Shown piece by piece: positions 1,449 through 21,011 of a DNA stretch of 64,000 bases (within the stretch, counting starts at the first letter, position 1; every line of letters starts with the position of its first letter). A program made the position numbers and the translations under genes. Under the pieces are notes generated by a model. That model was not told the origin of the DNA. It searched no databases and saw only the letters and a list, made by a program, of their open reading frames with translations. The DNA is from Candidatus Falkowbacteria bacterium. GTDB lineage: Bacteria; Patescibacteriota; Patescibacteriia; CAIXNZ01. The DNA lies in NCBI GenBank assembly GCA_963774955.1, contig CAVZGV010000003.1, positions 64,771 through 128,770 on the forward strand. The letters are read 5' to 3'.

Positions 1449-1874
1449 ATGCCACTAACAGGACCGTTTTTAGTCCCACAATTTATTGACGTCGAAAGCA
1501 AAATCTTCGGGCCGATTACCACGAGGCAGTTTTTGATAATGATGGTGGCAGCGATGTTGGATTTTTTATTCTATAAGATGCTTTATGCCAATACTGCCAT
1601 AATCGTAATCGTTATTAATACCGGTCTATTTATGATAGTTGCTTTTTTAAAGATTAACGGCATGCCCTTCCATATTTTCTTTGTAAATCTGATGCAGACT
1701 TTATTGCGTTCCAGCGTAAGAATTTGGAGGCGGGTGGAAGTCACTGCTTTACCACCGGTGGAGAAAGAAGATGTTAAAAAAGAATTTGTCCCCAAAACTG
1801 CAATTCCAGAATCCAGACTTTCTTCTCTTTCCCTGACAATTAATACCGGCGGCGCTTATAAGGAAGAGGATTAG
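1449..1874 (+). CDS. small two-TM membrane protein, VirB3/PrgI-like (T4SS/conjugation-type), immediately upstream of VirB4-like ATPase
   Basis: 141 aa, two hydrophobic helices, position directly before VirB4-family gene as in Gram-positive/CPR T4SS loci. Confidence 0.45.
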   Translation: MPLTGPFLVPQFIDVESKIFGPITTRQFLIMMVAAMLDFLFYKMLYANTAIIVIVINTGLFMIVAFLKINGMPFHIFFVNLMQTLLRSSVRIWRRVEVTALPPVEKEDVKKEFVPKTAIPESRLSSLSLTINTGGAYKEED

Positions 1875-1976: not shown

Positions 1977-4590
1977 ATGGCTTTTGCTTCCACTCAAAAA
2001 TATTTGCATATTTCCGAATTTCGTAACGACATGGTCATTCTTAAAGACGGTACTTTGAGAATGGTTATTATGTGTTCCAGTGTTAATTTTGCGCTTAAAG
2101 GTGAAGATGAACAAAGCGCTTTGATCGCCGGCTACATGGAATTTTTAAATTCCATGGATTATCCTATCCAGATTGTGATCCAGTCCAGAAAATTAGACAT
2201 TGAAGGCTATATGCGTCGTCTGCAGGAGGCGCAAAAGGCTCAAACCAATGAGTTATTGAAGACACAAATTGACGGCTATCGCGGTTATATCAATCAATTA
2301 ATTGAAATGCAGGAAATAATGACCAAGAAATTTTTTATTGTTATACCATTTAATCCGCTTGGTTCTAAAAATAAGAGTTTTTTTGCCAGGTTAAAGGAGT
2401 CTTTATTCCCGGTCCATCTTATTCGTTTACGGAAAGAAAAATTAGCTGAATACAAGGATGAAATAATGCTTAGAGCTGATAACGTGATGTCTAATTTGAG
2501 ATCAATGGGGCTTGAAGCCGTGGTCTTGGATACTCAGAGCTTAATTGAGCTTTATTATAATGTATATAATCCCAAAACCAGCCAGAATGAGAGATTAAAA
2601 GATGTCAGCCAGATGGGCTTGGAAGCTTAAATATTATTTTGAATTTATTATCTTATGCCATTAGAAATTAATCAACAAACCCAAGGCCCTCAGCCAAAAC
2701 AGCCTAAAGTGACTGCGGCGCAAATGAAAGCCCAGGAATCATCAGCGGCCAAAGGCGAGGCCATTACCTTGGAAGAAGAAAAAATTTATCGCCACGGTGT
2801 GATGGATATCAAGGATTTGATTTCCCCGGCTGCTTTTGAAGTTAAGCCGACTTATTTAATTTTAGGGGATATTTATTGTCCGAACATTTTTTGTTTTGAA
2901 TTATCCTCGCTATATTAATATTGGTTGGTTTACTCCGATTGTTAATTTGAGTAAGACCCTGGATGTGGCGATGTTTTTTTATCCGGTTAAATCAGATATG
3001 ATTTTAAAGCAACTAAAAAAAAGAGTCGGTAATATGGAAGCCCAGCTGATGTCTGATATTGAAAAAGGCGCGCCACGTGATCCGATTTTGGAAACCGGTT
3101 TGCGAGACATTGAAAAATTAAGAGATGATTTGACCCAGGGCATTGAGCAATTTTTTCAATTTGCTCTTTATATCACCATTTATGCCAAAAATATGGAGGA
3201 ACTGGAACAATTCAGCTTCGGAAATTGAATCAATATTTGGCGGTAAATTGATTTATAGTAAAAAAGTTTTTTATCAGGCGGAACAGGGCTTTAATTCTAC
3301 TATTGCCCATGGCCAATGATGAACTGATGATTTCTTTTAATATGAATACTTCGCCGGTGCGCCTCTTCTTTTCCGTTTATTTCTTCAGAATTGACCTCTG
3401 ACAACGGAATTTTATACGGGATTAATCGTCATAATAATAGTTTGATTTTTTTTGACAGATTTTCTTTGCAAAATGCCAATACGGTGGTTTTTGCCACTTC
3501 CGGTGCCGGTAAAAGTTATGCTATTAAATTGGAAGTTTTGCGTAGTTTAATGTTGGGCACTGATGTAATTATTATTGATCCGGAAAGGGAATATAAGCAT
3601 TTGTCTGAAGCTGTCGGCGGAACTTATATTGATATTTCTTTATCTTCAAAAAATAAAATTAATCCTTTTGATTTGCCTCGAGCCATTGGCGATGCCACCA
3701 CCGAAGATATTATCAGAAGCGCGGTTATTACTTTAAAAGGTTTATTGACGTTAATGCTGGGTAAACTGACAATTGAAGAAGATTCAATTTTGGATCGCGC
3801 CTTAATGGAAACTTATGCCAGTAAAGATATTACTCCCCAGTCTGATTTGGCTAAGATTGAAGCGCCGATTATGCAGGATTTGCAGAATATTTTAGACGGC
3901 ATGGAAGGCGCAAGCAATTTAAGCTTGAGGTTGAAAAAATATACCGAAGGTACTTTTTCCGGTTTATTTAACTCAGCCGACCAATGTGGATATGAAAAAT
4001 CAGTTGGTTGTTTTTTCGTCCGAGATTTGGAAGATGAATTACGGCCAATTGCTATTTACAGTATTATTAATTATATCTGGAATGTGGTTCGTTCAGAGAT
4101 TAAAAAAAGAATTTTGGTTATTGATGAAGCCTGGTGGCTGATGACTAGTGAGGATTCGGCTAAATTTATTTATGCTCTGGTTAAACGTTGTCGTAAATAT
4201 TATCTGGGCGTAACCACCATTACTCAGGATGTTAATGATTTTTTAAATAATCCTTATGGCAAGGCAATTGTGACTAATTCTTCATTGCAATTGCTTTTGA
4301 AACAATCTCCGGCTTCAATTGAAAATATCGTTAAAATATTTATGTTGACTGAGGGTGAAAAATATTTGCTTTTGGAATGCGGAGTCGGTGAAGGTATTTT
4401 TTTTGCCGGCCAGAAACATGCCGCTATTAAAATTGTGGCTTCTTATACTGAAGATCAGCTAATTACCAGTGATCCGCATCAACTTTTGGAAATTGAAGCG
4501 TCTAAACGAGAATTTGAACAGAAAAATGCAGCTGGGGAAGAAGCAGGTCAGGCTCCAAAGCGGGAAGGTGTTGAGGAAATAGCAATTTAA
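1977..4590 (+). pseudogene. virB4: VirB4/TrbE/CagE-family type IV secretion ATPase, disrupted into >=5 pieces (1977-2630, 2655-2918, 2896-3228, ~3225-3390 in two further frames, 3391-4590)
   Basis: N-terminal CagE_TrbE_VirB-like domain in 1977-2630; Walker A FATSGAGKSYAIK and Walker B VIDEAWW in 3391-4590; in-frame TAA (2628-2630) and TGA (2640-2642) plus at least three frame changes; summed length about 860 aa as expected for VirB4. Confidence 0.6.
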
Positions 4591-4623: not shown

Positions 4624-5280
4624 ATGGCATTGGCTCAAAATCAGGTCACCTCAAGGAAGAAAAGATCATTACTCTGGATCTTGTTGATTTTATTGTTATT
4701 AATTGCGGCTATTTTGATTTATTTGTATTTATTTTATTTTAAACCAAAACCAGTGACTGAAAATATCAATATTAATCAGAATACCAATCAGACAATTTCA
4801 CCGACTGCGCCGGCAACAACGACTTTCAATAATACAAATGCCAGCGTGTTAACGGATATTCAGGCAGCTACCGGCGGCAATCAGTCCGGTAATCAAAATG
4901 AACAGAATAATGCAATTTTAATAGCCACAGCTTTTACCGAAAGATTTGGCAGTTATTCCAATCAAAGCGATTATCGTAATTTCCAAGAGTTAGATCAGTT
5001 TATGACTGAGACGGTTAAAAAATGGGTCAGTCAGTATATCGAAGGCTTGAAAAAAGATCATGCTGATACCAATGTCTATTATGCTATTGAAACCAAGGCA
5101 ATTTCCACTCAGGTTAACAGTTTTGATGAGACAGCGGGTTTTGCTCAGATCTTAATCAGAACTCAGCGTCAGGAATTTAATAATACGATTACCAATCCCC
5201 AAATAATTTATCAGGATATGCTGTTAGAACTTATTAAAGATAATAATCAATGGAAAGTCAGGGGTGCTTATTGGCAATAA
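4624..5280 (+). CDS. hypothetical membrane-anchored protein (N-terminal TM, Asn/Gln/Thr-rich exterior)
   Basis: ORF track; single N-terminal hydrophobic helix, low-complexity N/Q/T region. Confidence 0.5.
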   Translation: MALAQNQVTSRKKRSLLWILLILLLLIAAILIYLYLFYFKPKPVTENININQNTNQTISPTAPATTTFNNTNASVLTDIQAATGGNQSGNQNEQNNAILIATAFTERFGSYSNQSDYRNFQELDQFMTETVKKWVSQYIEGLKKDHADTNVYYAIETKAISTQVNSFDETAGFAQILIRTQRQEFNNTITNPQIIYQDMLLELIKDNNQWKVRGAYWQ

Positions 5281-6216: not shown

Positions 6217-6231
6217 ATAATAGGGACTTCC

Positions 6232-6327: not shown

Positions 6328-6408
6328 AAAAGCCCTATTATGTCTAATATTTTATCTTAATTTAAAGAAAAAGTCAAACTTAGTACTTAATATTAACAAA
6401 TTAAATAT

Positions 6409-6918
6409 ATGCAGCAAACTCAAGATTCAAACCTAAAAAAAGGTGAATTTGGACGAATATTTTTCGAATGGCAGATTCCTGAATATACAATGCATGAAAG
6501 AAGTAATGCCTGGTATATTGTTATGGCGATTATTGGCATTGGGCTGGTAATTTATAGTATTTTTACGGCAAATTTTCTTTTTGCCTTGATTATTATTTTG
6601 GCTACCTTTGTTGTCTATTTACGGGTATATTATACTCCCAAGGACTTGTTTTTCCAGATTACTGAAGATGGCATCGTCATAGGCAATCAGTTTATTGGCT
6701 ATGAAACACTGCAAAATTTTTATATCATCTATTATCCCCCGGCGATTAAAAAGCTTTTTTTCAGACGTAAGGGAATAAATTTGACCGACATTTCAGTTCC
6801 TTTGGATAAAATAAATCCTGTTCTACTCAGAAAACAACTGCTGATTTATCTGAATGAAGATTTGGACAAAGAGCATCAAAGCGCAGCTGATTTGATTGAG
6901 ATGCTGTTTAAATTGTAA
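6409..6918 (+). CDS. hypothetical membrane protein
   Basis: ORF track; two TM helices near N-terminus; terminator hairpin at 6941-6966. Confidence 0.5.
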   Translation: MQQTQDSNLKKGEFGRIFFEWQIPEYTMHERSNAWYIVMAIIGIGLVIYSIFTANFLFALIIILATFVVYLRVYYTPKDLFFQITEDGIVIGNQFIGYETLQNFYIIYYPPAIKKLFFRRKGINLTDISVPLDKINPVLLRKQLLIYLNEDLDKEHQSAADLIEMLFKL

Positions 6919-6980
6919 AAAATAGTATTATAGGCTATAATAATTGGGGAGATGTTATGTCTCCCTTTTATATTCGTTTT

Positions 6981-7055
6981 ACGTTATTCGGTATCGGTTA
7001 ACGTTACGTTAATCGTCAACCGTTAGACGAAACGCATGTCGATACCGAATAACGA
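6981..7055. repeat. perfect 15-bp inverted repeat (cgttattcggtatcg / cgataccgaataacg) with 45-nt spacer, upstream of tRNA-Arg
   Basis: read directly; right arm overlaps motif ACGAAACGCATGTCGATAC shared with 1396-1446. Confidence 0.6.
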
Positions 7056-7067
7056 ACAACCGATTTA

Positions 7068-7139
7068 GTCCTCGTAGTTCAACGGATAGAACACAAGATT
7101 GCGGATCTTGTGATCCAGGTTCGATTCCTGGCGAGGGCA
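7068..7139 (+). tRNA. tRNA-Arg (anticodon read as GCG)
   Basis: acceptor gtcctcg/cgagggc, D-stem gttc/gaac, anticodon stem caaga/tcttg, loop ttGCGga, T-arm ccagg-ttcgatt-cctgg. Confidence 0.65.
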
Positions 7140-7147
7140 TACGTGGT

Positions 7148-7182
7148 TCTCCGCCGAAGGCGGATCCGCCTCTGGCGGAGAT
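7148..7182. repeat. hairpin-pair repeat R1a (ccgccgaaggcgg-at-ccgcctctggcgg)
   Basis: 34/37 identical to 10334-10366; lies between tRNA-Arg 3' end and its 17-nt duplicate. Confidence 0.7.
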
Positions 7183-7196
7183 TCCTGGTGAGGGCA
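7180..7196. repeat. 17-nt duplicate (16/17) of tRNA-Arg 3' end (7123-7139)
   Basis: gattcctggtgagggca vs gattcctggcgagggca. Confidence 0.7.
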
Positions 7197-7301
7197 TAAA
7201 TAAGTTTAAAGTTTAAAGTCAAAAGTTAAAAGTTTGGAAGATATATTTTAAAAAAATCCAAATACTGCTTCGCGGCATAACTTAGGAATAATAATTTCAA
7301 G

Positions 7302-9404
7302 ATGTATTCCTTAAGTGCTCCCATAGAAAATTTAACCCGGGTCGGTAAAACTACGGCCGGTCGTTTAAAAAGATTAGGCATTGCCACGGTCAATGACCTG
7401 CTTTTTTATTTTCCGTTCCGTTATGAGGATTTTAGTCAGGTGGTTAAAATAAATGATTTGCGGCCCAACCAGACAGTTACTATTAAAGGTAAGATTGTTT
7501 TGATTGAAAATAGGAGAGCCCATCGTCGCCGTATGACTATTACCGAGGCTTTGATTGAAGATGAAACCGGTTCAATTCAAGTTATCTGGTTTAATCAGCC
7601 TTTTTTAATAAAAAATTTAAAACCCGGTGATGAAGTTTTTATTGCCGGCACTACGGAGATAAATAATTTGTCCCTGCAGTTTACTTCACCGGCCTATGAA
7701 AAAATTACAGGCGGTGACAGCCTTAATACGGCTAAAATTGTACCGGTTTATCCCTTGACCAGCAATTTAACGCAAAAGCAATTGAGATTTTTAGTTAAAG
7801 TTGCTTTGGACTCGGTTAATCTGGTTAAAGAATGGCTGCCCAGGGAAATTTTGGATAAAAATAATTTAATGCCTTTGGCTCAAGCTTTGGCGGACATTCA
7901 TTTTCCGGCTAGTTTTGAGGTTCAGGCGCAGGCTCGTTATCGTTTTAAATTTGATGAGCTTTTTTTAATTGCCTTGCAAAGCCAGAGACTGCGTCAGTAT
8001 TTGGCTCAAACCAAAGCCCCGCAGATTGCGTTTAAAGAGCAGGAGATTAAAAATTTTGTCAGCAGTTTGCCTTTTACTTTGACCGCTGATCAGAAAAAAG
8101 CAGCCTGGCAAATCCTTTTAGATCTGGAAAAATCTCAGCCGGCCAACCGTTTGCTGGAAGGGGATGTCGGATCAGGCAAAACCGTGGTCGCAGCCATGGC
8201 CATTTTAAATACGGTTTTAAATGATTTTCAGGCGGTTTTAATGGCACCGACTGAAATTTTGGCCAGGCAACATTACAATGGAATCAAAACTTTATTAGCG
8301 CCGTTTAAAATTAAAACAGTTTTATTAACGAGCAGCGAAAAAGTATACTTTGACGGTCAGCAAGAAATTGTCGGGAAACATGAAGTTTTGAATTTGGTCA
8401 AAAACGGTAAGGCCCAATTAATAATCGGCACCCATGCTTTAATTCAGGATGAAGTTGAGTATAAGAATTTGGGTTTAGTCATTGTGGATGAGCAACATCG
8501 TTTCGGCGTGGAACAAAGGAAAACATTAAAAGATAAAAATAAAAACGGGTTGACACCTCATTTTATATCCATGACTGCTACGCCGATTCCCCGTTCGCTG
8601 GCTTTGATTTTATACGGCGATTTGGATTTATCCATGATTAAGGAAATGCCCAAGGGCCGTAAAAAAATTATTACCCGCCTGGTTGCTGAATCCGACCGGC
8701 AGCAGGCTTATCAGTTTATCAGGCAGGAAATTAATAACGGGCGTCAGGTTTTTGTCATTTGTCCCTTGATTGATCCTTCTGATAAATTGGGAGTCAAGTC
8801 AGTGACCGAAGAATTTAAAAAACTGGATAAGGAGATTTTTCCGGATCTCAAAATCGGTTTATTGCACGGCAAATTGAAAGGCAAGGAAAAAGAAGCAATT
8901 ATGGCCGACTTTAAAGCTAATGAAATTAAAATGCTGGTTTCCACTTCAGTGATTGAAGTCGGTATTGATATTCCCAATGCTACGATTATGATGATTGAAG
9001 GCGCGGATCGTTTCGGCCTGGCGCAATTACACCAGTTTCGCGGTCGGGTCGGCAGGGGAGAATACCAGTCTTATTGTTTCTTATTTGCGGAAAATTATCC
9101 CGCTAAACGGGATGCCGCTTCGCGGCATAATCCCAAGACTAGGGAAAGGCTGGAAGCCTTGGTTAAATCCAATGACGGTTTTGCTTTGGCTGAATATGAT
9201 CTTAAATTTCGCGGGCCTGGTGAGGTTTACGGCTCACGCCAATCTGGTTTGCCTGAATTACAGATTGCCAGTCTGACTGATTTGGAGTTGATTAATCTGA
9301 CCAAGGAACAGGCTAAGACTTTTTTTACTCAATATAAACTCGAAGATTTCCCTTGGCTTAAGGCTAAATTGGCTGAGAATAAACTGATTGATCATTTGGA
9401 ATAA
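7302..9404 (+). CDS. recG: ATP-dependent DNA helicase RecG
   Basis: 700 aa; N-terminal wedge domain, Walker A GDVGSGKT, DEQH box VIVDEQHRFG, conserved C-terminus TDGFALAEYDLKFRGPGE. Confidence 0.85.
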   Translation: MYSLSAPIENLTRVGKTTAGRLKRLGIATVNDLLFYFPFRYEDFSQVVKINDLRPNQTVTIKGKIVLIENRRAHRRRMTITEALIEDETGSIQVIWFNQPFLIKNLKPGDEVFIAGTTEINNLSLQFTSPAYEKITGGDSLNTAKIVPVYPLTSNLTQKQLRFLVKVALDSVNLVKEWLPREILDKNNLMPLAQALADIHFPASFEVQAQARYRFKFDELFLIALQSQRLRQYLAQTKAPQIAFKEQEIKNFVSSLPFTLTADQKKAAWQILLDLEKSQPANRLLEGDVGSGKTVVAAMAILNTVLNDFQAVLMAPTEILARQHYNGIKTLLAPFKIKTVLLTSSEKVYFDGQQEIVGKHEVLNLVKNGKAQLIIGTHALIQDEVEYKNLGLVIVDEQHRFGVEQRKTLKDKNKNGLTPHFISMTATPIPRSLALILYGDLDLSMIKEMPKGRKKIITRLVAESDRQQAYQFIRQEINNGRQVFVICPLIDPSDKLGVKSVTEEFKKLDKEIFPDLKIGLLHGKLKGKEKEAIMADFKANEIKMLVSTSVIEVGIDIPNATIMMIEGADRFGLAQLHQFRGRVGRGEYQSYCFLFAENYPAKRDAASRHNPKTRERLEALVKSNDGFALAEYDLKFRGPGEVYGSRQSGLPELQIASLTDLELINLTKEQAKTFFTQYKLEDFPWLKAKLAENKLIDHLE

Positions 9405-11243: not shown

Positions 11244-12583
11244 TTATATAACTTTCTTGATGGCCTGTTCCAGATTTTTTACAGGTACTAATTCTTTTTG
11301 TGAGGGTGCGGTTTTGCCAACCGGTATGATAATTTTCTTAAAGTTTAGTTTCAAGGCCTCTTCGATTCTTTTGTCCAGCTGGTAAACCGGCCGGATTTCA
11401 CCACCCAAGCCGACTTCGCCCAAAATCAGGGTTTGCGGGTCAATAGCTTTGTTTTTTAGGGAAGAAACAATAGCCAGGCAAACTGCCAGGTCAGCGCCGG
11501 TTTCGTTGATTTTAAGGCCCCCAGTGACGTTTAAATGGATATCCTGGTTGAGCAAGGGTACATCAGCCCGTTTAATTAGGACAGCTGCCAGCATTTGCAG
11601 TCGATTCAAATCATAGCCTGAACTTCGTCTTTGCGGGTAGCCAAACATGGTTTTGGTAACCAGCGCCTGGACTTCAATCAAAAACGGCCGACTGCCTTCC
11701 ATAATGCAAGTCAGAGCAGAACCGGAAATAGGCGTCTGATTGATGCGGTAGAAAAAGTTCTGAGGGATTTTTTACTTCCAGCAGGCCGCTTGAGCTCATG
11801 CTGAATATGCCGATTTCCTGGGTTGAGCCAAATCGGTTTTTGGCGCAGCGCAGTGAGCCGAAAATCATCCGAAGTTGAACTTTCCAAATACATGACTGCA
11901 TCAACCAGATGTTCCAGTGATTTGGGACCGGCGACCTGGCCGTCTTTAGTCACATGACCGATGATTAGAATGGCGATATTATATTTTTTGGCTATTTCTA
12001 AAAGTTTAACCGTACAAATCCTGACCTGATTAATTGATCCGGCCTCGGAAGGAAGTTCATTAGAATATAAGGTTTGGATGGAATCAATGATAATTAAACT
12101 TGGTTTTTCTTCGACTGCAAATCCGGTAATTTTTTCAACGTTGTTTTCGGCCAGAAATTTTAATTTGGGAAAATCCAGATTAAGCCGGTCAATTCTCATT
12201 TTTATCTGGGAGGCTGATTCTTCACCGGAAACATAAAGAATGGGGGACTGGAGCTGATGGCAGAGTTGTAAAACCAGGGTTGATTTGCCGATGCCGGGTT
12301 CGCCGCCCAGCAGGATTAAACTGCCGGCGACAATACCGCCGCCCAAGACGCGGTCAAATTCGCCGATCTTAGTTTGCAAACGTTCGAATTTGGGAGTGGC
12401 TGAAGTTTTAAAGTCAATGAGTTGGGATTTATCTACCTTTATAGTTGTCATTTGAATTTTGTCATTTGTCATTTCTTCGGCTATGGTTCCCCAGGCGCTG
12501 CAAGTCGAACAGCGCCCAGTCCACTTGGGATACTGGGCGCCGCATTTTGAGCAAGCGTATATTGTCTGAGGTTGTTTAGACAT
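11244..12583 (-). CDS. radA: DNA repair protein RadA, interrupted by two frameshifts in this sequence (pieces 12583-11711, about 11904-11760, 11702-11244)
   Basis: N-terminal zinc ribbon [18 protein letters not shown], Walker [16 protein letters not shown] motif in a second frame, Lon-like C-terminal domain in a third. Confidence 0.75.
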
Positions 12584-12589: not shown

Positions 12590-12782
12590 TATTTATTCAA
12601 CCCCCTCTTTGATTCTCCCCCTAATCATAGGGGGAGAGTGCGGGAATATCGGATTTTCCGTAAACACCCCTCCTTACAAAGGAGGGGATCGGGGGAGGTT
12701 CTCGGATACTTTATCAACTCCCTCCCACCTTCGCTAAAGCTACTGTGGGCTAGCTGTATCTCCCTCTAATCTTAGAGGGAGA
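12590..12782. repeat. GC-rich three-hairpin tail of DUF559 copy 1 (C' 12614-12637, B' 12667-12687, A' 12759-12782)
   Basis: perfect 9-10 bp stems tctccccctaatcatagggggaga, cccctccttacaaaggagggg, tctccctctaatcttagagggaga; homologous to 31851-32011. Confidence 0.75.
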
Positions 12783-13175
12783 TTCCGGAAGTGCAGGCTG
12801 AGTTTTGATTTTACGATCGTTTATTTCCTTACAAAGACAATATAGTTCCTCAACCACTGAATCAATATCTTCAAAGATTTGGTGATTCCAATATCTTTTT
12901 ACAATAATTCCGCAATCTTGTAAATATTTATCCCTGATTTTATCTCTATTAATATTCTTTTGTAGGGTATGAATATCACCGTCTAATTCAATCGCTAATT
13001 TTAATTCAGGGCAATAGAAATCTACTATATAGTATCCAATCCCATATTGCCGACGGAATTTGTATCCTAACTTTTTGTTTCTTAATTCTTTCCAGAGTGT
13101 AACTTCAGCTGGAGTCATTTTTTCCCTTAATATTCTTCTTTTCGTTTTATGCAATTTTAAATTAAACAATTGCAT
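12750..13175 (-). CDS. DUF559 (Vsr/restriction-endonuclease-like fold) domain protein, copy 1
   Basis: 141 aa, signature FRRQY..YIVDFYCPELKLAIELDGDIH; about 65% aa identity to 31458-31889. Confidence 0.75.
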   Translation of the reverse strand: MQLFNLKLHKTKRRILREKMTPAEVTLWKELRNKKLGYKFRRQYGIGYYIVDFYCPELKLAIELDGDIHTLQKNINRDKIRDKYLQDCGIIVKRYWNHQIFEDIDSVVEELYCLCKEINDRKIKTQPALPESPSKIRGRYS

Positions 13176-13263
13176 TTGATTTTTTATTTTGGTTTTAATT
13201 TAGTATCTCTGGGCGCCGCATTTTGAGCAAGCGTATATTGTTTGAGGTTGTTTGGGCATGGGG

Positions 13264-14961
13264 TTATTGAAAAAGTGGAAAATCAGAGGCTTCTGGTACA
13301 CAGGTGCCGCCAACAGATAATATTTTAGAAGTTGGGGTAGAGCATTTTAATCCCGCTCGGCACTCACCATCTCCTCTAGTTGTTACGCTATTACCAACCC
13401 TGGAACAGGAATCACCTATTTCACCTCGAGCGCAGGTATTGGTTCCCGCCGTGTTGCAAATTTTTGTTTTACATTCAGCATTACTGTTACAAGCTGTGCC
13501 TGCATCTCCAGTTGTACAAATATTGCCTAAAGAGGTATTGCAAATCATGGGATCGCCATTGGGAGCTTTGGGGCATTGATCGTTTGAATTACAATAACAA
13601 ACACACAACTTATCGCCTTTTGTTTGATTACTCGGTGCGCAAATGGTTCCGCCGGGAAATTGGAGATGGCCACCTTCAATTGGTTCTATTTTACATTCGT
13701 ACTCACCTTTGTTGCAATATGTTAATTCTTTTACCCCTGTTATTTTATCCATTGTGACACCAACAGCGGCACCTGCCATTCCTAATGTGGCTGTAATTGG
13801 CAATTTTGCATAAGCTGTGACGAGGGAACCTGTTAACCCGCAGGTAAATCCGCTTTGACAAGTAGTACTACTCATTCTGTAAGGATCACAGCGGCCATAG
13901 CCTATTTTGGGCATGCACTTGTTAGCCCCAAATGTTCCAACGCTGGTATTACAGTAATAGCCTTTCTCAGAGGCACAATCTTTATCAGCATCAGCATTAG
14001 CATTATAACAATTTTTTATTGTTTCAAAAGATGCACCACCTAAGCATTCTTGGAAATCAGTACCGACGCAAGGATTACCCACATAGCCAAATTGACAATA
14101 ATTTAAGCCTGCCCAAGGAGCATAGCATCTTAATCCCTTGCAGTCTTCTTTCTCAGTTTTATCAGAGCAGTCTTTAAAAAGTGATTCGGTAATATCAATG
14201 CATTTGCCGTCAGTACATTTGCCGCCGCAACAAAGGCGGTCTTCAGTGCAGGCTTCGCCGTTTTTAGTGCAATCTACACATTCCCAGGAACCGCTATTTT
14301 TACAAACCTTATCAGTACCTAAGGCTGAGCAGTCTTTGCCGGTGCATTTTGTTTTAAATGAATCTTCATAGGCTTCGCCGCATTTTTTAGTTAGGTCATC
14401 TGTGCAGGTGGTATTGTTTTCCAGATCCAAAGTGCGCAATTCGCCGACGCATAAACCAGGGGAGACTAATTTGCCTTTCTTGGCATCACAGTCGGCTTTT
14501 AATAAAAATTCATATTGTTTTTCACCTGTTTGACAGCATTTCGTGCCTTCTATTACTGTAATGGATAATGGCTGGAGCAGAATTGTGCCCGGTGCGACTA
14601 CTTGCAGGATGATAATCGCAAAAAGAGAGATACAGATGCCCAGGACAGCTTTGAAAATAGTATCTTTGGCTTTCTCGATATTTGACGGCGCTGCTCCGGA
14701 AAGTGTCCACAGGACACCGCCATACATGATCATAATAATAGCCAGGGCAATAACAGTGGCCGACCCAAATAAAAAGACAGCTTTGATATATTCGGCAATA
14801 GTTGAACCAGTAATCGGTAAACTGGCCGGTAAATCACCAAAAGGCACCTGTAGATCTAAAAAATCAAGCTGCGCCAGGCAGATAGGCAGGAAGATATTGA
14901 AAACCGTAACAATAATAAAGACAATAATCGGAAAAAGAAAAATTTTAGGCAATTTTGGCAT
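13264..14961 (-). CDS. cysteine-rich (about 60 Cys) surface protein with N-terminal signal peptide + two-TM hairpin (VirB2/T4SS-pilin-like topology)
   Basis: N-terminus MPKLPKIFLF..CLAQ then two helices; about 430-aa domain full of CxxC/GxC spacings; no homolog recognised. Confidence 0.55.
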   Translation of the reverse strand: MPKLPKIFLFPIIVFIIVTVFNIFLPICLAQLDFLDLQVPFGDLPASLPITGSTIAEYIKAVFLFGSATVIALAIIMIMYGGVLWTLSGAAPSNIEKAKDTIFKAVLGICISLFAIIILQVVAPGTILLQPLSITVIEGTKCCQTGEKQYEFLLKADCDAKKGKLVSPGLCVGELRTLDLENNTTCTDDLTKKCGEAYEDSFKTKCTGKDCSALGTDKVCKNSGSWECVDCTKNGEACTEDRLCCGGKCTDGKCIDITESLFKDCSDKTEKEDCKGLRCYAPWAGLNYCQFGYVGNPCVGTDFQECLGGASFETIKNCYNANADADKDCASEKGYYCNTSVGTFGANKCMPKIGYGRCDPYRMSSTTCQSGFTCGLTGSLVTAYAKLPITATLGMAGAAVGVTMDKITGVKELTYCNKGEYECKIEPIEGGHLQFPGGTICAPSNQTKGDKLCVCYCNSNDQCPKAPNGDPMICNTSLGNICTTGDAGTACNSNAECKTKICNTAGTNTCARGEIGDSCSRVGNSVTTRGDGECRAGLKCSTPTSKILSVGGTCVPEASDFPLFQ

Positions 14962-14967
14962 AAGAGG

Positions 14968-15669
14968 TTATTTTTTTAGTTCACTGTCAATGATATTTTT
15001 TATCGTGTAATAATTGATAAAACCTTCAATTTTTTGGTCGTTAACAAAGATAGTTGGCACTGCCGTGACTTCCATATTTATGGCTTCAACCAGATTGCGG
15101 TCTAAGACGGCTACATATTTGCCGGTATTAATACATTGCTGAAATTTTTCCTTATCTAAACTCAAGGTTTGAGCCAGGCTTACATAAGTGGCCGGACCTA
15201 AATTGGTTTGGTTTTGATAAAGTAACTCTTGATACTCCCAGAATTTATTTTGTTCCCAGGCGCAGTAAGCAGCCGAAAGAGACGGCCGGGTTTCCTGATT
15301 AATAGTGACCGGCAGGCCTTTAAATATAAAACGGACCTGACTGGCGTAAATTTTTTCCAAGTTGTTCATGGTTGCCTGAACCGAAGCACAGCTGGGGCAG
15401 GTGAAATCAGTATATTCAAAGACTGTTACCTTGGCATCCGGCTGGCCTTTGATCGGATCATAGCGGGTAACCGCTGGAATTTTTTTCAGGGCCTGTTCAG
15501 ACTGATTTTTGTAATACTGGTCTAGAAAATTATATAATTTCCATTCTTTCCAGTAATAGCCGAGTAAACTATAGGAAATAACGAAAATAACAAGCACCGT
15601 AAAAATCAGAAAATAAATAAAATAAAGCTTTTGCGGGGAAATCAGGATTTTTTTCTTGTCAGTCATCAT
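14968..15669 (-). CDS. membrane-anchored DsbA/BdbD-like thiol:disulfide oxidoreductase
   Basis: N-terminal TM; thioredoxin CxxC motif FTCPSCA; DsbA-like length. Confidence 0.7.
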   Translation of the reverse strand: MMTDKKKILISPQKLYFIYFLIFTVLVIFVISYSLLGYYWKEWKLYNFLDQYYKNQSEQALKKIPAVTRYDPIKGQPDAKVTVFEYTDFTCPSCASVQATMNNLEKIYASQVRFIFKGLPVTINQETRPSLSAAYCAWEQNKFWEYQELLYQNQTNLGPATYVSLAQTLSLDKEKFQQCINTGKYVAVLDRNLVEAINMEVTAVPTIFVNDQKIEGFINYYTIKNIIDSELKK

Positions 15670-15673
15670 AGTT

Positions 15674-16936
15674 TTATAATCTTATTTCTTTAATTTGTCC
15701 GGAATTTTTATCCCAGGCGTAGAGGATGGTTTTATCCTGACTGATCACCATTTTGCCGATTGAAGTATCAAAAAGCGGTTGAGCGATCAATTCCTTACTG
15801 CCAGTCATCAGGTTAATTTTATAAATATTATCAGGCTGGGAATCGGCCATGCTGGGAATAAAGCCGCTGCCCAGATCAAGTGTTTTTGGCACGGCGCAAT
15901 AGATAATATTATCCCCGCCAAAGGTGCATTTATCAGCCCAGGTATCAAGATCAAGTTTTGTTCGTCCGGTACCCAGTAAATCAGGAGTTGAATTAACTAC
16001 CCATAAAGTCGGATTGTATGAAGACGCTGAATTGTATGAGCTGTAAAGTAGTTTATTGCCAGTGGGTGAAAAAACATAGCGGGGATCACGGCCCTCAATG
16101 CGTACGGCTTTGAAATTTTCGCCGTTAAAGCCGATCGGGTAAATCTCAGAACGGTCAGCATCGAGTCCTTTGATAAACATCGCAACATATTGGTTATTAG
16201 GGGACCAGGTAATGGCAACATTTTCATCCTCATCACCCAGGGCTTCAATCTGGCGGTAATTACCTCCGTTGGTATCACTGATGGCTATATATCTGTCTTC
16301 AGGATCAAGTTTCATGGCTTTAAAAGCGATTTTGGAACTATCAGGTGAAAAAGTAAAATCTTTCCAGTGGGTGGGCAGAGTGATGGTGGTCTTTTTATTA
16401 ATATCGTAAATAACATTAGAACCGTCTGGATATTCCATGACTGCTTGTTTGCTGTTTGGCGCCCAGGTTACTTTCTCTACATTTTTAAAAGCAATGTCAG
16501 AAATTAAAGTTTTAGTGCCATCAGGGGTGATATTATAAAAAAATCCGTTATTGGCATTATAATAAACCAAATCCGTACCATTACTGCTTAAAGATGGGGT
16601 TAAGGCCGGATCATTTTCCAACACAGTATATGCTGTAAGGCCGCCATTTGCTTGAAATGAAATCGTAGTGCCCGGAATAGTGGTCACAGGCGGGGGTAGG
16701 CTGGGCAGTGCCGGCGGCAAGAGTGCCGGAGCATTAATAAGGGGAGGGATATAGGCTGGAGGTGGCTGGGTGGGAGGAAATTCAGTCGGTGGAGTCGGAG
16801 TAACCGGCGGTGTTACGGGTGGCGTTGGTTGTGGTAAAAGAGGCCTGAAAAATAAATAAAAAATAGCAAAGCCTATAAGCACAGCAACGGCAATAAAAAG
16901 TATAATCAGTAAAACTTTTTTTGTTCGATCAGACAT
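15674..16936 (-). CDS. membrane-anchored TolB-like/PD40 beta-propeller protein with Pro-rich linker
   Basis: N-terminal TM, PTPPVTPPVTPTPP linker, repeated beta-propeller blades. Confidence 0.5.
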   Translation of the reverse strand: MSDRTKKVLLIILFIAVAVLIGFAIFYLFFRPLLPQPTPPVTPPVTPTPPTEFPPTQPPPAYIPPLINAPALLPPALPSLPPPVTTIPGTTISFQANGGLTAYTVLENDPALTPSLSSNGTDLVYYNANNGFFYNITPDGTKTLISDIAFKNVEKVTWAPNSKQAVMEYPDGSNVIYDINKKTTITLPTHWKDFTFSPDSSKIAFKAMKLDPEDRYIAISDTNGGNYRQIEALGDEDENVAITWSPNNQYVAMFIKGLDADRSEIYPIGFNGENFKAVRIEGRDPRYVFSPTGNKLLYSSYNSASSYNPTLWVVNSTPDLLGTGRTKLDLDTWADKCTFGGDNIIYCAVPKTLDLGSGFIPSMADSQPDNIYKINLMTGSKELIAQPLFDTSIGKMVISQDKTILYAWDKNSGQIKEIRL

Positions 16937-17001
16937 ATTTTTTGGTTAATAATATATTAGTAAATAAAAGGCGGTAAAAATTATTAATTATTTTAAAATC
17001 T

Positions 17002-18393
17002 TTATGATTGCGGTGCTATTAATAACAGGAATAACGAAATAACAATTACCGGTGAGAGCAGGATCATTAAACAGATTATAAGTAACATCAGGATTATAGC
17101 GTCTAAGATGAGGAAAACAGCAATTTCAGCAATTTCAAAAAGCATCCACATGATTCTATCAGCCTTTTTATCAAAAGAATCATTGCCATCACTTATTTTT
17201 TCAGATTCTCCCGAGCCTCCTGATGTGCCGCCACCTCCTCCGGCAGCACCGCCACCTCCTCCGGCAGCACCGCCAGCTCCTCCGGCAGCGCCTCCAGCAC
17301 CTCCAGCAGCTCCGGCAGCACCGCCAGCTCCTTCGGCAGCTATATTTAGATATTCTTTCCATTCATGACCAAAACGGCAGACATATTTAGAATGTGCAAA
17401 ATATTTAACCAGAAAATGTATATTAATATAGATAATTCCTACGATAGGACCGAGAATTGTTTCCAGGTTAATTATGAGTGCCCAGGCATCACTTAAAAAT
17501 TGAGCTGATACTTTTTGCCCGATCATTATAATTACATCTTGGGCCACTTTCTTGGCAGCTTTAGCTGCTTCTCTGATCTTCATTTGAGAGGCTGCTCTTT
17601 GCATTCTCTGCAAATCTCTTTGCATGGCTTTTTCCGGATCTTCTTCCTGTTCTTTATCCTTGCCTTTATCCTCTGCTCCTTTTTTCTTATCTTTAGATTG
17701 GTCTTCTTCCCCTTGTTTTTCCTGGCCTCCTTGGCCCTGTATTAATTTAGTTTGATCAGACGGACCTGCTTCTTCAGGCGGTTCCGCCCCTGGTCCGGCT
17801 GAGGTTGGCTGCCGTTGCGCTACTCTGAAATCACGCGCTTGTTGATTTTCCTGTTGCTGTTCTTCTGGTTTTTCCGTGTTTTTATCTTGATCCGAGCTTT
17901 GTTGTTCCGGTTCTTTGCCCCCAGTTTGAGTTTGATCAGCAGGTTGCTGGTTACCGGTTTCGGCTTGGTTTTGTTCTGTAGTATTTTTATCTTGATCCGG
18001 ACCTTGTTGTTCCGGTTCTTTGCTCTCAGCTTGAGTTTGATCAGCAGGTTGCTGATTACCAGTTTCAGCTTGCGCATTACCATTAGTGGCCTGGCCTTGG
18101 TTTGCCGATGGAGCTCCTGACTTTTTCGGGGCAGTCATATTACCAGCTTGTTCTTGAGGCCCTGTTTTTTTCCCTTCCGCTTCATTAGCCAGGTTACCAG
18201 GTTCGTCTGGCGATCCTGGTTCTTGTGGTTGGCCATTTTTTCCCTTAGGTTTGCTTTGCGGAGTCTCATCATCATCAAGTTTTTCCGGTTTGGGGATATC
18301 TCCGGATATTTTAACTTGTCTTTTCTGATCACGTAAATTACGGCCCTGATCTTTTTCTTGGTTATTGGCTGGTGAAGTATTTGAATCGACCAT
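17002..18393 (-). CDS. hypothetical membrane protein with long disordered Q/E/K/G-rich N-terminal region, internal 35-aa tandem duplication and Gly/Ala repeat between TM helices
   Basis: 105-bp direct repeat x2 at 17879-18088; GAGGAAGAAGGAGG stretch; C-terminal hydrophobic helices. Confidence 0.5.
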   Translation of the reverse strand: MVDSNTSPANNQEKDQGRNLRDQKRQVKISGDIPKPEKLDDDETPQSKPKGKNGQPQEPGSPDEPGNLANEAEGKKTGPQEQAGNMTAPKKSGAPSANQGQATNGNAQAETGNQQPADQTQAESKEPEQQGPDQDKNTTEQNQAETGNQQPADQTQTGGKEPEQQSSDQDKNTEKPEEQQQENQQARDFRVAQRQPTSAGPGAEPPEEAGPSDQTKLIQGQGGQEKQGEEDQSKDKKKGAEDKGKDKEQEEDPEKAMQRDLQRMQRAASQMKIREAAKAAKKVAQDVIIMIGQKVSAQFLSDAWALIINLETILGPIVGIIYINIHFLVKYFAHSKYVCRFGHEWKEYLNIAAEGAGGAAGAAGGAGGAAGGAGGAAGGGGGAAGGGGGTSGGSGESEKISDGNDSFDKKADRIMWMLFEIAEIAVFLILDAIILMLLIICLMILLSPVIVISLFLLLIAPQS

Positions 18394-18415: not shown

Positions 18416-19198
18416 TTAAGCGCTTTTTACTCTTTTTAAATCCTGATATAAAGCAAAAGGATAAACTAGTATCAATAGCATGATAATAATAACAAAAATA
18501 TAGCTTAGTGCCGGTCCGATTGCCGGCAGTTTAAATAGTAAACCGGAAATGTTGTTTAAGATTAAGACCATAATGGCCAGCACAAAAATTTTAAAGGCCA
18601 GGCTGGAGAGGCTGCTTTTACTTAAATGGTACGTGTGTTTAATGGCATTTAGCGGGTATTCATCCTTTTCAATTATGATATAAATGCTAAAGATCAGTGT
18701 CGAGGAAAGCAGTAAGATCAAAATATAACCCAGGATCAGAGAAAGTATGCCTAAAACAGCTTGGTTGGCGATAAAGAAGATAATGGCAGCATAAATCGGC
18801 AGGGAAAAGATAACAAACAAAATGGAAATGATAATGGCGAGGAACAGAAAGTTTAAAAAATGTTTTTTGACCGACTTAATATTTTCTCTGAATTTCAATT
18901 TGGGATTCATTAAAGTATAAATAATAACGATTTGGGCAACTACGGCAATAAGAAAATAAATAAGATAAGTGCTTAAAGCCCAGAGAATGCGGGAGACTAT
19001 TATATTATCAACAGTAATGACTTTAAAGGTAACAAGTAAATAATAAATATAGGTCAAGAGCAGATTGGCAGCTAAAATCAGAACTGAAATAAAAATAAAA
19101 CTTAGCAGTAAATTCAGCCAGCTTTGCTTGACGATTTCCAGACATTTAAGAAATAGCTGGCTGGTCGGCATTAATTTTACGGAGTTATTGGTTGGCAT
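18416..19198 (-). CDS. hypothetical polytopic membrane protein
   Basis: about 6 predicted TM helices; in cluster with lemA-htpX. Confidence 0.5.
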   Translation of the reverse strand: MPTNNSVKLMPTSQLFLKCLEIVKQSWLNLLLSFIFISVLILAANLLLTYIYYLLVTFKVITVDNIIVSRILWALSTYLIYFLIAVVAQIVIIYTLMNPKLKFRENIKSVKKHFLNFLFLAIIISILFVIFSLPIYAAIIFFIANQAVLGILSLILGYILILLLSSTLIFSIYIIIEKDEYPLNAIKHTYHLSKSSLSSLAFKIFVLAIMVLILNNISGLLFKLPAIGPALSYIFVIIIMLLILVYPFALYQDLKRVKSA

Positions 19199-19282: not shown

Positions 19283-20209
19283 TTATGCCATGCTGCGCAA
19301 TTTGTTGATGCGGTCTGCCAACGGCGGATGAGTAGAAAAGAGGCCGCTTAGGAATTTTTTAGTCTGGCCAAAAGGATTGGCAATATATAAATGAGCCGTG
19401 GCATTATGGGCTCTTTTTAAGGGTTGAATATTCTCTTGTCCGATTTTTTCCAAAGCATTGGCTAAGCCCTGAGGATAGCGGGTTAAAAGTGAACCATCAG
19501 CGTCAGCTAAATATTCGCGTTTGCGGGAAATTGCTAATTTGATAAGTTCGGCTATCAGCGGGGTAAGCAGGGCAACAAAGATGCCGATGATGATAAAAAT
19601 TCCGGCAGATTTACTATCATCTCCTTTATGGAAAAGGCCTCGCATCAGCCAGTCCGCCAAAAGTGCGATCACGCCGACCAAAACCAGGACAACCATCATC
19701 AAGCGGATATCATAATTTTTTACATGCGAAAGTTCGTGGGCAATCACACCTTCCAGTTCTTCATTGGTTAATTTGCTGATGGCGCCGCTGGTGAGCGCAA
19801 TAGATGCGTGTTGCGGATCTCTGCCAGTGGCAAAGGCATTGATATTCTGGTCTTCGATAATATAAATTTTAGGCAGGGGCAGGCCAGCAGTCAGACAGAG
19901 ATTTTCCACCATATGAAACACGTATTTATTTTCATCATGAGTGATTTCTTTGGCGCCCGAGCTAGATAAGGCGACTTTATCGCCGGCATAGTAGCTGACC
20001 AGAGTCATAATCATAGAAATTATAATTGCCGCAATGAGTCCCAGAGAACCGCTTTCAGTCAGATAACCAAAAAGCCAGCCCAAAGACAGAATAAAGGCGA
20101 TAAAAATAATAATTAAGAAAACAGTTTTGCGTTTATTGGAGTCAATTTGTTGATACATATTTTTGCTTATAGCAGATAGCTTATGGCAAATAGTTAAACT
20201 ATTTGCCAT
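19283..20209 (-). CDS. htpX: zinc metalloprotease HtpX (M48)
   Basis: HELSHVKN HExxH motif, N-terminal TM helices, lemA neighbour. Confidence 0.85.
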   Translation of the reverse strand: MANSLTICHKLSAISKNMYQQIDSNKRKTVFLIIIFIAFILSLGWLFGYLTESGSLGLIAAIIISMIMTLVSYYAGDKVALSSSGAKEITHDENKYVFHMVENLCLTAGLPLPKIYIIEDQNINAFATGRDPQHASIALTSGAISKLTNEELEGVIAHELSHVKNYDIRLMMVVLVLVGVIALLADWLMRGLFHKGDDSKSAGIFIIIGIFVALLTPLIAELIKLAISRKREYLADADGSLLTRYPQGLANALEKIGQENIQPLKRAHNATAHLYIANPFGQTKKFLSGLFSTHPPLADRINKLRSMA

Positions 20210-20222: not shown

Positions 20223-20774
20223 TTAGAATTGAACTTTGGGTGCTTCTTTTTCTTCAGCTTCAATCTGGAAAAAGTCGTATTTTTTAAAGCCAAGCATGCC
20301 GGCGATCATATTGTTTGGGAAAACTTGAATTTTGGTGTTGAAATCGCGGACATTGCCGTTGTAAAAGCGGCGGGATGCCTGGATTTTGTTTTCAGTGTCG
20401 CTCAATTCATCCTGAAGCTGTAAAAAGTTGGTGCTGGCTTTCAAATCAGGATAAGCTTCAGCAACCGCAAATAATGACTTCAAAGTTCCTGATAAAATGT
20501 TTTCAGCCTCGCCTTTTTCTTCTATTCCCTTGGCTTGCATAGCTTGGGAGCGGGCTTCAGTGACTTTCTGGAAAACCTGGTTTTCATGGCCGGCATAGGC
20601 TTTGACTGTTTCCACTAAATTGGGAATCAGGTCATATCTTCTTTTTAATTGGACGTCAATATCTGACCAGGCTTCATCAACTCGGTTACGGCTTCTGATT
20701 AAATCATTATAAACCGCAATTAGCCATAAAAGCACAACGCCGATAATGACCAGAATTATTACCAAAATAGGCAT
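20223..20774 (-). CDS. lemA: LemA family protein
   Basis: N-terminal TM, conserved RRYDLIPNLVETVKAYAGHE region. Confidence 0.8.
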   Translation of the reverse strand: MPILVIILVIIGVVLLWLIAVYNDLIRSRNRVDEAWSDIDVQLKRRYDLIPNLVETVKAYAGHENQVFQKVTEARSQAMQAKGIEEKGEAENILSGTLKSLFAVAEAYPDLKASTNFLQLQDELSDTENKIQASRRFYNGNVRDFNTKIQVFPNNMIAGMLGFKKYDFFQIEAEEKEAPKVQF

Positions 20775-21011
20775 AATTTTTTGCTTTAATTAATTAAATT
20801 TAATATACTTAATTCAGCTATTTTATAAGGGCAGGTGTTTTAGCAAATATAAACAAAACTGGCCAAAATAAAACAGCCTGAAATTATGTCCTCATGAGTT
20901 AATTATAGTATGAAAATTGTGCTAATGTCAAAAGAAATTTATTATTTTTAATTAAATTTTCCCCAGTCAGCAATATTTTGCTGTAATTAGGGAAGATTTT
21001 GGAGAAAAAAT

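Follow-up and report, generated by a model that had tools for sequence, protein, structure and literature searches.

A 64,000-nucleotide stretch of the Candidatus Falkowbacteria bacterium contig CAVZGV010000003.1 (positions 64,771 to 128,770; hereafter the window, with coordinates counted from its first letter) encodes on its minus strand a 565-residue protein (14961..13264) that is probably a modular VirB2-type pilin, one that would be oxidatively folded by the DsbA-like enzyme encoded just ahead of it and would act at the cell surface as an adhesin or host-contact module. The protein consists of a signal peptide, a two-helix hairpin and a cysteine-rich ectodomain, and its unusual feature is the 428-residue extension past the second helix. 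Its gene is the last of four co-oriented open reading frames (ORFs), all present as a sequence-only reading of this region had described them. In transcriptional order they encode a membrane protein with a disordered region (463 residues, 18393..17002), a beta-propeller anchored by a transmembrane (TM) segment and a proline-rich tether (420 residues, 16936..15674), a membrane-anchored DsbA/BdbD/MdbA-like oxidoreductase (233 residues, 15669..14968) and the pilin, with gaps of 65, 4 and 6 nucleotides between them.

Homology of the hairpin to VirB2-like pilins

Three hydrophobic segments were recognized in the 565-residue protein by hydropathy (residues 1-35, 55-91 and 99-135). The first belongs to a Sec-type signal peptide (residues 1-30, 14872..14961, minus strand), delimited by hydropathy and by the aligned N-termini of orthologues, with a putative cleavage site between ...PICLAQ and LDF. 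The other two make up the hairpin, whose conserved core (residues 55-125, 14587..14799, minus strand) is defined by the Pfam family PF18895 (T4SS_pilin), by AlphaFold2 and by a hairpin profile (A4). AlphaFold2 placed helices at residues 54-87 and 92-122; the full-length model was computed from a 6-sequence alignment, has a predicted local distance difference test score (pLDDT) of 42.9 and is usable only for the hairpin helices.

The sequence-only reading had compared this N-terminus to the signal peptide and two-TM hairpin of VirB2-like pilins, and profile searches bear this out. PF18895 matches residues 55-122 of the window pilin with 24.8 bits (E=2.3e-5; gathering threshold 26.6), and orthologues in the same genomic slot pass that threshold at 29 to 34 bits (29.0 in L008, 31.2 in L009, 31.9 for P0012, 32.0 in L013 and 33.7 for P0009); for P0001, the family is recorded as a precomputed database match. 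In addition, profile A4, built from an alignment of 8 hairpins, retrieved 958 proteins at a cut-off of E ≤ 1e-3, and the best 120 of the 958 are all 58-180 residues long. A precomputed PF18895 match is carried by 119 of these 120, often together with PF04956 (TrbC/VirB2), and the remaining one has no recorded Pfam match; several of the 120, from Saccharibacteria, Nomurabacteria and related groups, are named "pilin" at source. A word-indexed protein search with a single hairpin sequence gave no matches. Judged by the profile matches, the N-terminus of the 565-residue protein is homologous to ordinary Patescibacterial VirB2-like pilins, beyond a mere likeness of topology.

The window pilin has the signal peptide and the two hydrophobic helices with a short polar loop between them; it departs from the small single-domain format (about 100-180 residues) through its length of 565 residues and its 428-residue C-terminal ectodomain. 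By analogy, the polar loop (…SGAAPSNIEKAKD…) would be cytoplasmic, and the cleaved N-terminus and everything after helix 2 would lie outside the cell. No match to N_methyl, the class III signal peptide of type IV pilins, was obtained with Pfam in the 565-residue protein, and no second pilin paralogue was found in the window. No Patescibacterial VirB2-like protein is so far known to form a pilus (PMC12857230).

The cysteine-rich ectodomain

The ectodomain occupies residues 138-565 (13267..14550, minus strand). It had been credited with about 60 cysteines; the actual count is 48 for the whole protein. Of these, 46 fall at residues 142-554, and the signal segment and the second hydrophobic helix hold one each. 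The resulting cysteine density of 10.7% is about 16-fold above the 0.65% (9 cysteines in 1376 residues) of the four proteins encoded upstream, which is far beyond chance. Of 22 complete family members, 20 have an even number of ectodomain cysteines, with values that include 4, 14, 18, 26, 28, 30, 32, 42, 44, 46 and 48, and the cysteine-rich extensions that some members carry N-terminal to the hairpin also hold even numbers (4, 8, 12 or 14). In an alignment of the nine ectodomains of type A, the type of the window pilin, 39 of the 54 invariant columns are cysteine, and the most widely kept piece of the ectodomain is a membrane-proximal CC…C…C stem module. Because the counts are even and the cysteine columns invariant, the ectodomain is interpreted as a fully disulfide-bonded extracytoplasmic scaffold with about 23 putative disulfides.

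The cysteines had further been described as falling in repeated spacings, which holds in a weak sense. A knottin-like motif, C-x6-C-x6-CC-x3-C-x4-C, was located by regular expression at residues 231-254 (14200..14271, minus strand) and is kept in the type-A orthologues; this region is among the better-predicted parts of the ectodomain, with AlphaFold2 pLDDT values of 74-83 in blocks of 10 residues. It is a conserved spacing motif, and it comes with no hidden Markov model (HMM) match and no significant fold match to knottins. A 4-cysteine module, G-x2-C-x4-6-[EDQP]-C-x3-7-C-x5-9-C, occurs in one strict copy in the window pilin and in up to 4 copies in orthologues; the 4 copies of P0004 compare with 0.09 expected, a number reached in 0 of 2000 shuffles. 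No internal repeat was detected when the ectodomain was compared with itself by BLASTP, and on this ground a tandem repeat-protein reading was rejected.

A word-indexed search of 5.8 billion proteins returned 6 relatives. A profile of the ectodomain, searched against 1.84 billion representative proteins, gave 12 matches at E ≤ 1e-3, 11 of which are real relatives in which the match starts between residues 135 and 263, after the pilin hairpin; the weakest of the 12, P0014 (E=1.8e-4), is a repeat protein with no relation to them. In total, the family amounts to about 30 sequences from one lineage. The expectation that the ectodomain has no close characterised homologue was upheld, with no shared Pfam family in the nine type-A ectodomains (E ≤ 1), nothing meaningful among PDB sequences in phmmer and profile searches with the ectodomain, and no fold match. 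NCBIfam likewise gave no match on the pilin. No account of such an architecture was found in the literature on cysteine-rich pilins or DsbA in Patescibacteria, and a survey of VirB2-like pilins in this group (PMC12102498) and a recent review (PMC12857230) make no mention of cysteine-rich or domain-bearing pilins or of a linked DsbA.

One stretch of the ectodomain is free of cysteine. This Gly/Ala-rich, mildly hydrophobic insertion of about 40 residues (…LTGSLVTAYAKLPITATLGMAGAAVGVTMDKITGVK…; residues 375-413, about 13723-13839) is present in the window pilin and in its 81%-identical orthologue, is absent from the other type-A members and has a weak holin-like Pfam match (E=0.099).

Variability of the ectodomain within a conserved slot

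Related loci were gathered in three sets, comprising the contigs of the six first homologues, a propeller-seeded scan of species-representative genomes and a hairpin-profile-seeded metagenome scan. In most of these loci, identity to the window is 59-87% for LemA, RadA and RecG, 53-56% for the propeller, 43-48% for DsbA and 46-56% for the hairpin, and it is 28-32% or not detectable for the ectodomain; over all loci with LemA, RadA and RecG at 59-87%, the hairpin reaches up to 66% and the ectodomain up to 38%. The same gradient is seen in the closer locus L004, in which LemA is 87%, the propeller 75%, DsbA 67% and the hairpin 66% identical and the ectodomain aligns over 14% of its length only. 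Within the pilin gene, it is the ectodomain that changes fastest.

At least four types of ectodomain occupy the slot, in sizes from 46-56 residues with 4 cysteines to 440 residues with 46-48 cysteines. Type A, which bears the knottin motif, comprises the window pilin, P0002, P0004 and P0008-P0011, and type B, built of repeated C…C-x-W modules, comprises P0003, P0005, P0007, P0012 and P0013. A third cysteine-rich type is found in L008 and L009, and P0015 and P0016 carry the minimal 4-cysteine knobs. Yet another domain follows the hairpin in L013. In L012 (OZ246405.1, 11888-13579), the same slot behind the propeller and the DsbA holds instead a 563-residue protein with a signal peptide, an 8-cysteine N-terminal extension, the hairpin and a C-terminal VanY/M15 domain (33.9 bits; gathering threshold 25) in which the H-x3-G-x-A-x-D and E-x2-H motifs are intact. 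This protein is, as predicted from its motifs, a pilin-anchored D,D-peptidase and thus a cell-wall hydrolase.

In a comparison of the window with L002, which carries the 81%-identical orthologue, the ratio of nonsynonymous to synonymous substitution rates (dN/dS) is 0.12 for the whole pilin. The hairpin by itself has 0.058 and the ectodomain 0.128, as against values of 0.035-0.10 in LemA, HtpX, the propeller and DsbA, all at a synonymous divergence of about 1, that is, near saturation. The pilin is a real gene under purifying, relaxed selection.

The adjacent DsbA and its linkage to the pilin

The protein encoded immediately upstream of the pilin had been taken for a TM-anchored, thioredoxin-fold oxidoreductase with a CPSC motif, which is what was found. 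It matches Thioredoxin_4 with 102.6 bits (gathering threshold 23.2; E=3e-29) and DSBA with 44.5 bits (gathering threshold 25.6), and its best solved relative is Bacillus subtilis BdbD (3eu3, E=4e-15). Its catalytic motif is CPSC, and the orthologues have CPDC, CTAC, CDGC or CSSC at this site. As an N-terminal KKK precedes the TM segment predicted by hydropathy at residues 8-40, the enzyme would be oriented with its N-terminus inside and its catalytic domain outside the cell.

In every related locus with a visible upstream side, about 25 in number, the DsbA gene lies 5' of the pilin gene (the window, L001, L002/L007, L004-L006, L008, L009, L012-L015, L017-L020 and L022-L030; the L001 DsbA is an ORF that is broken by Ns and missing from the gene calls, and L010 ends inside the DsbA gene). 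It directly precedes the pilin except in L026, where a DUF559 gene (1681-2148) has been inserted between the two. According to gene calls and ORF lists, the gap measures 1-19 nucleotides, with 126 nucleotides in L006. The propeller and the disordered protein usually go with this pair; wherever that side is visible, the propeller gene precedes the DsbA gene and a homologue of the disordered protein precedes the propeller, and the propellers of L012 and L013 are still 38-39% identical to that of the window. The whole arrangement belongs to a common syntenic region that runs from PGM and DUF8173 through LemA, HtpX, a 6-TM protein, in some loci a ClpB-like protein, the disordered TM protein, the propeller, DsbA, the pilin, in some loci DUF559, and RadA to MPG and RecG, and further on to ComF, a 218-residue TM protein and VirB4.

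A lack of co-conservation among the genes had been named as a refutation of the sequence-only reading, and the outcome has to be divided. The DsbA-pilin pair is present in every related locus examined. It is kept in L006 and L012, the most distant relatives, despite different flanks, it is kept down to a hairpin identity of 26%, its genes are tightly spaced, and every protein in the slot retains at least 4 ectodomain cysteines, even at a size of 46-56 residues (P0015, P0016). These four points make a case for a specific link between the DsbA and the pilin. For the propeller and the disordered protein, co-conservation could reflect inherited gene order instead of function, since all related loci share one syntenic region, and one further locus, L011, has a propeller orthologue apart from the other genes.

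A further suggestion, that the disulfide-rich fibre or adhesin has its own oxidase, is unproven. An MdbA-like oxidoreductase family is enriched in the candidate phyla radiation (CPR), where VKOR is its commonest neighbour and where it has been proposed to fold type IV pilins (Méheust et al., bioRxiv 10.1101/335083). This MdbA/BdbD-like family is widespread in CPR bacteria, and the window DsbA may be the general oxidase of the cell. No second DsbA was found in the window, about 10 short ORFs of which were left out of the scan, and there is one DsbA per locus or window.

Proposed mechanism and alternative explanations

In the mechanism that we consider probable, the Sec signal peptide would export the N-terminus of the pilin and the two-helix hairpin would insert into the membrane with its short loop toward the cytoplasm, leaving the 428-residue C-terminal domain outside the cell, where about 23 disulfides would lock it. 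The BdbD/MdbA-like DsbA, encoded 6 nucleotides upstream and presumably co-transcribed, would oxidise this domain as it emerges. The ectodomain would then be the variable business end of the protein, an adhesin or host-contact module that grows, shrinks or is swapped as the hairpin, the DsbA and the propeller stay conserved; the module of L012 would serve wall hydrolysis instead. The hairpin itself may act as a plain membrane anchor or may be taken by a type IV secretion system (T4SS) with PrgI/VirB3 and VirB4 components into a pilus-like structure, in which a place as a minor or specialised subunit is the most plausible.

Several observations weigh against this interpretation. The window pilin falls 1.8 bits below the gathering score of PF18895, and to our knowledge none of the VirB2-type pilins characterised so far carries a large extra domain. 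No DsbB, BdbC or VKOR partner was found among the ORFs of the window that were scanned with Pfam (all except about 10 short ones of 100-143 residues), and none was seen in the related loci. Adjacency alone is no proof of functional coupling. The AlphaFold2 model of the ectodomain, computed from 7 sequences, is moderate (pLDDT 61.8; predicted template modelling score 0.50), and a Foldseek search of the PDB with it returned nothing below E=1; with a moderate model and no fold match, the adhesin role is proposed by analogy. By a rough estimate of surface area per subunit, taken from the published dimensions of the F pilus, a filament of this kind would have no room for a compact domain of about 45 kDa on each subunit. 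Between the VirB4 gene and the pilin lie housekeeping and other genes, those for a 218-residue TM protein, ComF, a 169-residue membrane protein, RecG, DksA, MPG, RadA and DUF559, and virB4 is fragmented in the assembly, with frame changes that adjoin T-runs.

The top Foldseek matches of the ectodomain model, ADAM17, Dickkopf, MIT1 and a double-knot toxin, all had E>1 and were discounted as not significant.

The T4SS genes lie 8.7 kb from the pilin stop codon. They comprise a PrgI/VirB3-like gene (1449..1874, plus strand; PF12666, 35.6 bits, gathering threshold 27) and a VirB4-like ATPase gene (1977..4590, plus strand) that reads as 4-5 ORFs owing to frameshifts and one in-frame stop, with P-loop_TraG (87 bits), AAA_10 and DUF87 on 3391..4590 and a weak TraC_F_IV match on 1977..2630. 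As the same kind of splitting affects radA, an M50 protease gene and apparently pheS, the virB4 breaks are probably assembly indels and not gene decay. An alternative genetic code behind the broken virB4 was also considered and rejected, all neighbouring genes being read through under code 11. The same arrangement recurs in L029, where VirB4 is intact in the same relative position, and in L001, L008 and L015 as far as their flanks reach. Of the 1,948 Patescibacterial assemblies in which a survey recorded VirB2-like pilins, more than half (1,135) have them near virB4 (PMC12102498), and a six-gene pilin array is essential in Southlakia epibionticum (PMC12102498, PMC12857230).

These genes make room for a narrower version of the explanation that we favour, in which the protein is a true pilus subunit whose hairpin is pulled out of the membrane and polymerised by the nearby T4SS, alone or with other pilins, into a VirB2-type pilus decorated or capped with disulfide-knotted host-specificity modules. 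Conservation within the pilin gene is highest in the hairpin, which has its homologues in ordinary short pilins, the short orthologues in the same slot resemble normal pilins with a 4-cysteine knob, PrgI and VirB4 are nearby in a conserved arrangement, and pilin arrays are essential in a cultured relative. Against these stand the facts that no monoderm or CPR bacterium is so far known to make a pilus of VirB2-like proteins and that the window has no other pilin paralogue. The packing of a 428-residue domain on each subunit is, by our inference, doubtful as well, and for this reason a homopolymeric fibre is doubtful too, and the likelier arrangement is a minor, cap or brush-like one. We consider a true pilus subunit rather unlikely.

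On a par with it, in our judgement, is the equally unlikely case of a plain envelope protein, in which the hairpin is an anchor and nothing else, the DsbA a general housekeeping oxidase and the LemA-to-pilin block an inherited gene order, with no link to the T4SS or to the propeller and disordered proteins. The synteny of the PGM-to-RecG region in all relatives, the position of the lone strong promoter-like site upstream of LemA, the L011 propeller that occurs without DsbA or pilin, the CPR-wide distribution of MdbA-like oxidoreductases and the single DsbA per locus or window are all consistent with it. Against it are a DsbA-pilin adjacency that survives the flank changes in L006 and L012, the insertions of mobile DUF559 and hairpin divergence to 26% identity, the gaps of 1-19 nucleotides, which suggest translational coupling, and the retention of at least 4 ectodomain cysteines in every slot protein, even one of 46 residues.

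Somewhat less likely again is a bolder proposal, that in this Parcubacterial lineage a T4SS pilin has been turned into a modular display platform. Here a hairpin polymerised or capped by VirB3 and VirB4 would carry swappable, disulfide-knotted modules for host recognition or effector action (the 4-cysteine knob, the 26-48-cysteine domains of several types or the VanY peptidase), matured by a co-transcribed DsbA and perhaps with the propeller as a scaffold. If this were true, the locus would provide the first modular VirB2 pilin and a candidate host-specificity determinant of CPR episymbiosis.

The least probable case is an anchored effector or toxin display, in which knottin-like and other small disulfide-rich modules, or the VanY peptidase in L012, would act on a host or neighbour cell, for instance by inhibition, pore blocking or wall hydrolysis, and might first be released by proteolysis; the inhibitor-cystine-knot-like motif, the recurrent 4-cysteine modules, the VanY/M15 domain on the same hairpin in L012 and the fast ectodomain turnover speak for it, and against it are the lack of any HMM or fold match to toxin or inhibitor families (Dickkopf, MIT1 and double-knot toxin all at E>1) and the fact that no cleavage site or processing protease was identified.

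Comparison with known systems

The modular VirB2-type pilin that we propose has its closest counterparts in the Patescibacterial VirB2-like pilins (PF18895/PF04956), including the S. epibionticum array, with which it shares the phylum, the signal peptide, the homologous hairpin and a position within about 10 genes of virB3 and virB4. The ordinary members are 58-180 residues long without an extra domain, whereas the window pilin has the 428-residue, 46-cysteine ectodomain, and in contrast to the S. epibionticum array there is a single pilin gene here, always paired with a DsbA.

In concept, a pilin with a cargo domain has a precedent in Streptococcus sanguinis PilB and PilC, Gram-positive modular type IV pilins with grafted vWA or lectin modules, in which a pilin polymerisation module is likewise followed by a C-terminal adhesive module displayed on the filament. 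Those proteins belong to an unrelated superfamily, and their class III signal peptide is cleaved by PilD, whereas the window pilin has a Sec signal and a VirB2 hairpin. Pairs of an oxidase and a pilus protein are also known, such as BdbD/BdbC with ComGC in B. subtilis and MdbA/VKOR with FimA in Actinomyces oris, and the F-plasmid T4SS has the thioredoxin-like proteins TrbB and TraF. The DsbA of the window resembles the BdbD-ComGC and MdbA-FimA systems in being a predicted extracytoplasmic, membrane-anchored, thioredoxin-fold oxidase for pilus proteins, and it is closest to BdbD. It differs in that 1-2 disulfides are formed in those systems as against about 23 putative ones here, in that the oxidase gene stands in the same tight string as that of its presumed substrate, and in that no BdbC, DsbB or VKOR is seen nearby. 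With knottins (inhibitor cystine knots) and Dickkopf- or colipase-type domains, the ectodomain shares local cysteine spacing, and tandem 4-cysteine modules occur; the window motif is, in contrast, embedded in a 428-residue multi-module domain without a significant HMM or fold match to these groups.

Patescibacteria have VirB2-like pilins in abundance, and at least one cultured species cannot do without them. A locus built on the pilin hairpin offers a concrete handle on what these pilins build and on host contact, and supplies candidate host-recognition modules. It also suggests that the C-terminus of such a pilin lies outside the cell and tolerates cargo. The DsbA and a protein with about 23 predicted disulfides would form a natural enzyme-substrate pair for studies of oxidative folding in CPR bacteria.

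The propeller, the disordered membrane protein and the extent of the operon

The propeller protein had been described as a TolB-like propeller on a proline-rich tether, and it does have an N-terminal TM segment and a proline-rich linker ahead of PD40 blades (21.0 bits; gathering threshold 20.9). Against the TolB equivalog TIGR02800, it scores 31.1 bits, where the cut-off is 343, and its match to TolB in the PDB (E about 7e-6 over about 130 residues) involves the propeller blades alone. The protein is, as far as these profile matches indicate, TolB-like in its fold and blades only. The PD40-type blades are common to it and to TolB of the Tol-Pal system, whereas the TolB N-terminal domain is missing, a TM anchor and a proline-rich tether are present, and the bacterium is presumed to be a monoderm that lacks Tol-Pal.

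The L011 propeller orthologue (38-39% identical; region 1374-7484 of that locus), which has neither DsbA nor pilin beside it, divergently adjoins a type IV pilus cluster with a PilB-like ATPase and PilM/N/O-like genes and is followed by ComF. About 3 kb downstream, the same locus encodes a thioredoxin-like protein with a TM anchor and a CSHC motif, and also a membrane protein with CPVC.

For the 463-residue protein, the Gly/Ala repeat and Q/E-rich region that had been noted correspond to a Gly/Ala run and a Q/E/K-rich N-terminal half, which are followed by C-terminal TM segments. No Pfam or NCBIfam match was found for it. Its orthologues in the same slot, the distant ones of L012 and L013 included, are 152-563 residues long and have in common a YINFHF..KY..S..FC.FG.EW loop and the C-terminal TM helices. 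The gene has the highest dN/dS of the block (0.22), and its charged N-terminal region is hypervariable, ranging from near zero to about 400 residues among relatives. Just before this gene, some related loci carry a gene for a ClpB/ClpC-like AAA+ protein (L008 6847-9297, L012 5355-7928, L013 6595-9225 and L029 2538-4991), which is absent from the window.

Upstream of the four genes, and co-oriented with them, are those for a 6-TM protein (19198..18416), HtpX/M48 (20209..19283) and LemA (20774..20223), the last two assigned by Pfam and all three by synteny. The 6-TM protein was given no family in Pfam and NCBIfam scans, and a DsbB-like identity was ruled out for it, as it has 0-3 cysteines, none of which is conserved. 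The only strong promoter-like site of the region, a perfect match to the sigma-70-like consensus TTGACA-18-TATAAT (20931..20902, minus strand) and a consensus match only, lies upstream of LemA, and no convincing strong terminator-like site was found on the minus strand between it and 13264. Of the single surface-structure operon that had been proposed, the tight, co-oriented spacing stands and the four-gene boundary is unproven: because the sole strong promoter-like site precedes LemA, the transcript may be longer than four genes and take in the 6-TM protein, HtpX and LemA.

Other features of the window

Straight after the pilin stop codon is a duplicate of the 5' end of radA, a 19-codon remnant (13200-13259, minus strand), which is followed by a DUF559 gene for a Vsr-like endonuclease (12750-13175, minus strand) and then by the true radA. 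In L001 and L018, the pilin ORF shares its 3' end with a radA-5' remnant that overlaps it. A second DUF559 copy of the window (31458-31889, plus strand) adjoins pheS/pheT. The DUF559 gene looks like a mobile element that duplicates its own target.

At the left edge of the window, a string of T4SS genes (119-5280, plus strand) encodes a 420-residue acidic, proline-rich protein without a family, PrgI/VirB3, VirB4 and the 218-residue TM protein, and the cluster probably extends past the start of the window. A VirB8/PrgL-like identity for the 218-residue TM protein (4624..5280), guessed from its position by VirB4, was set aside, as it has no sequence support. The genes that are split into overlapping or adjoining ORFs are virB4 (1977-4590, plus strand), radA (11244-12583, minus strand), the M50/RseP protease gene and apparently pheS (29232-30339 and 30609-31380, plus strand). 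As essential genes are among them, indel errors of the assembly are likelier than pseudogenes.

A 617-residue membrane-anchored protein without a Pfam family (26355-28208, minus strand) is encoded in the 2-kb bin with the highest GC content of the window (0.47 vs about 0.39), and the gene for a small sigma-70 region-4 protein (25575-26213, minus strand) adjoins it; this stretch may be a foreign island. A secreted 203-residue protein (38730-39341, plus strand) scores 27.3 against OMP_b-brl, whose threshold is 28.7, which is odd in a presumed monoderm. Finally, the N-methylation motif of type IV pilins stands at the very C-terminus (residues 173-197) of a 200-residue ORF (39742-40344, plus strand), a position that points to a pilin gene with a frameshift or a wrong start.

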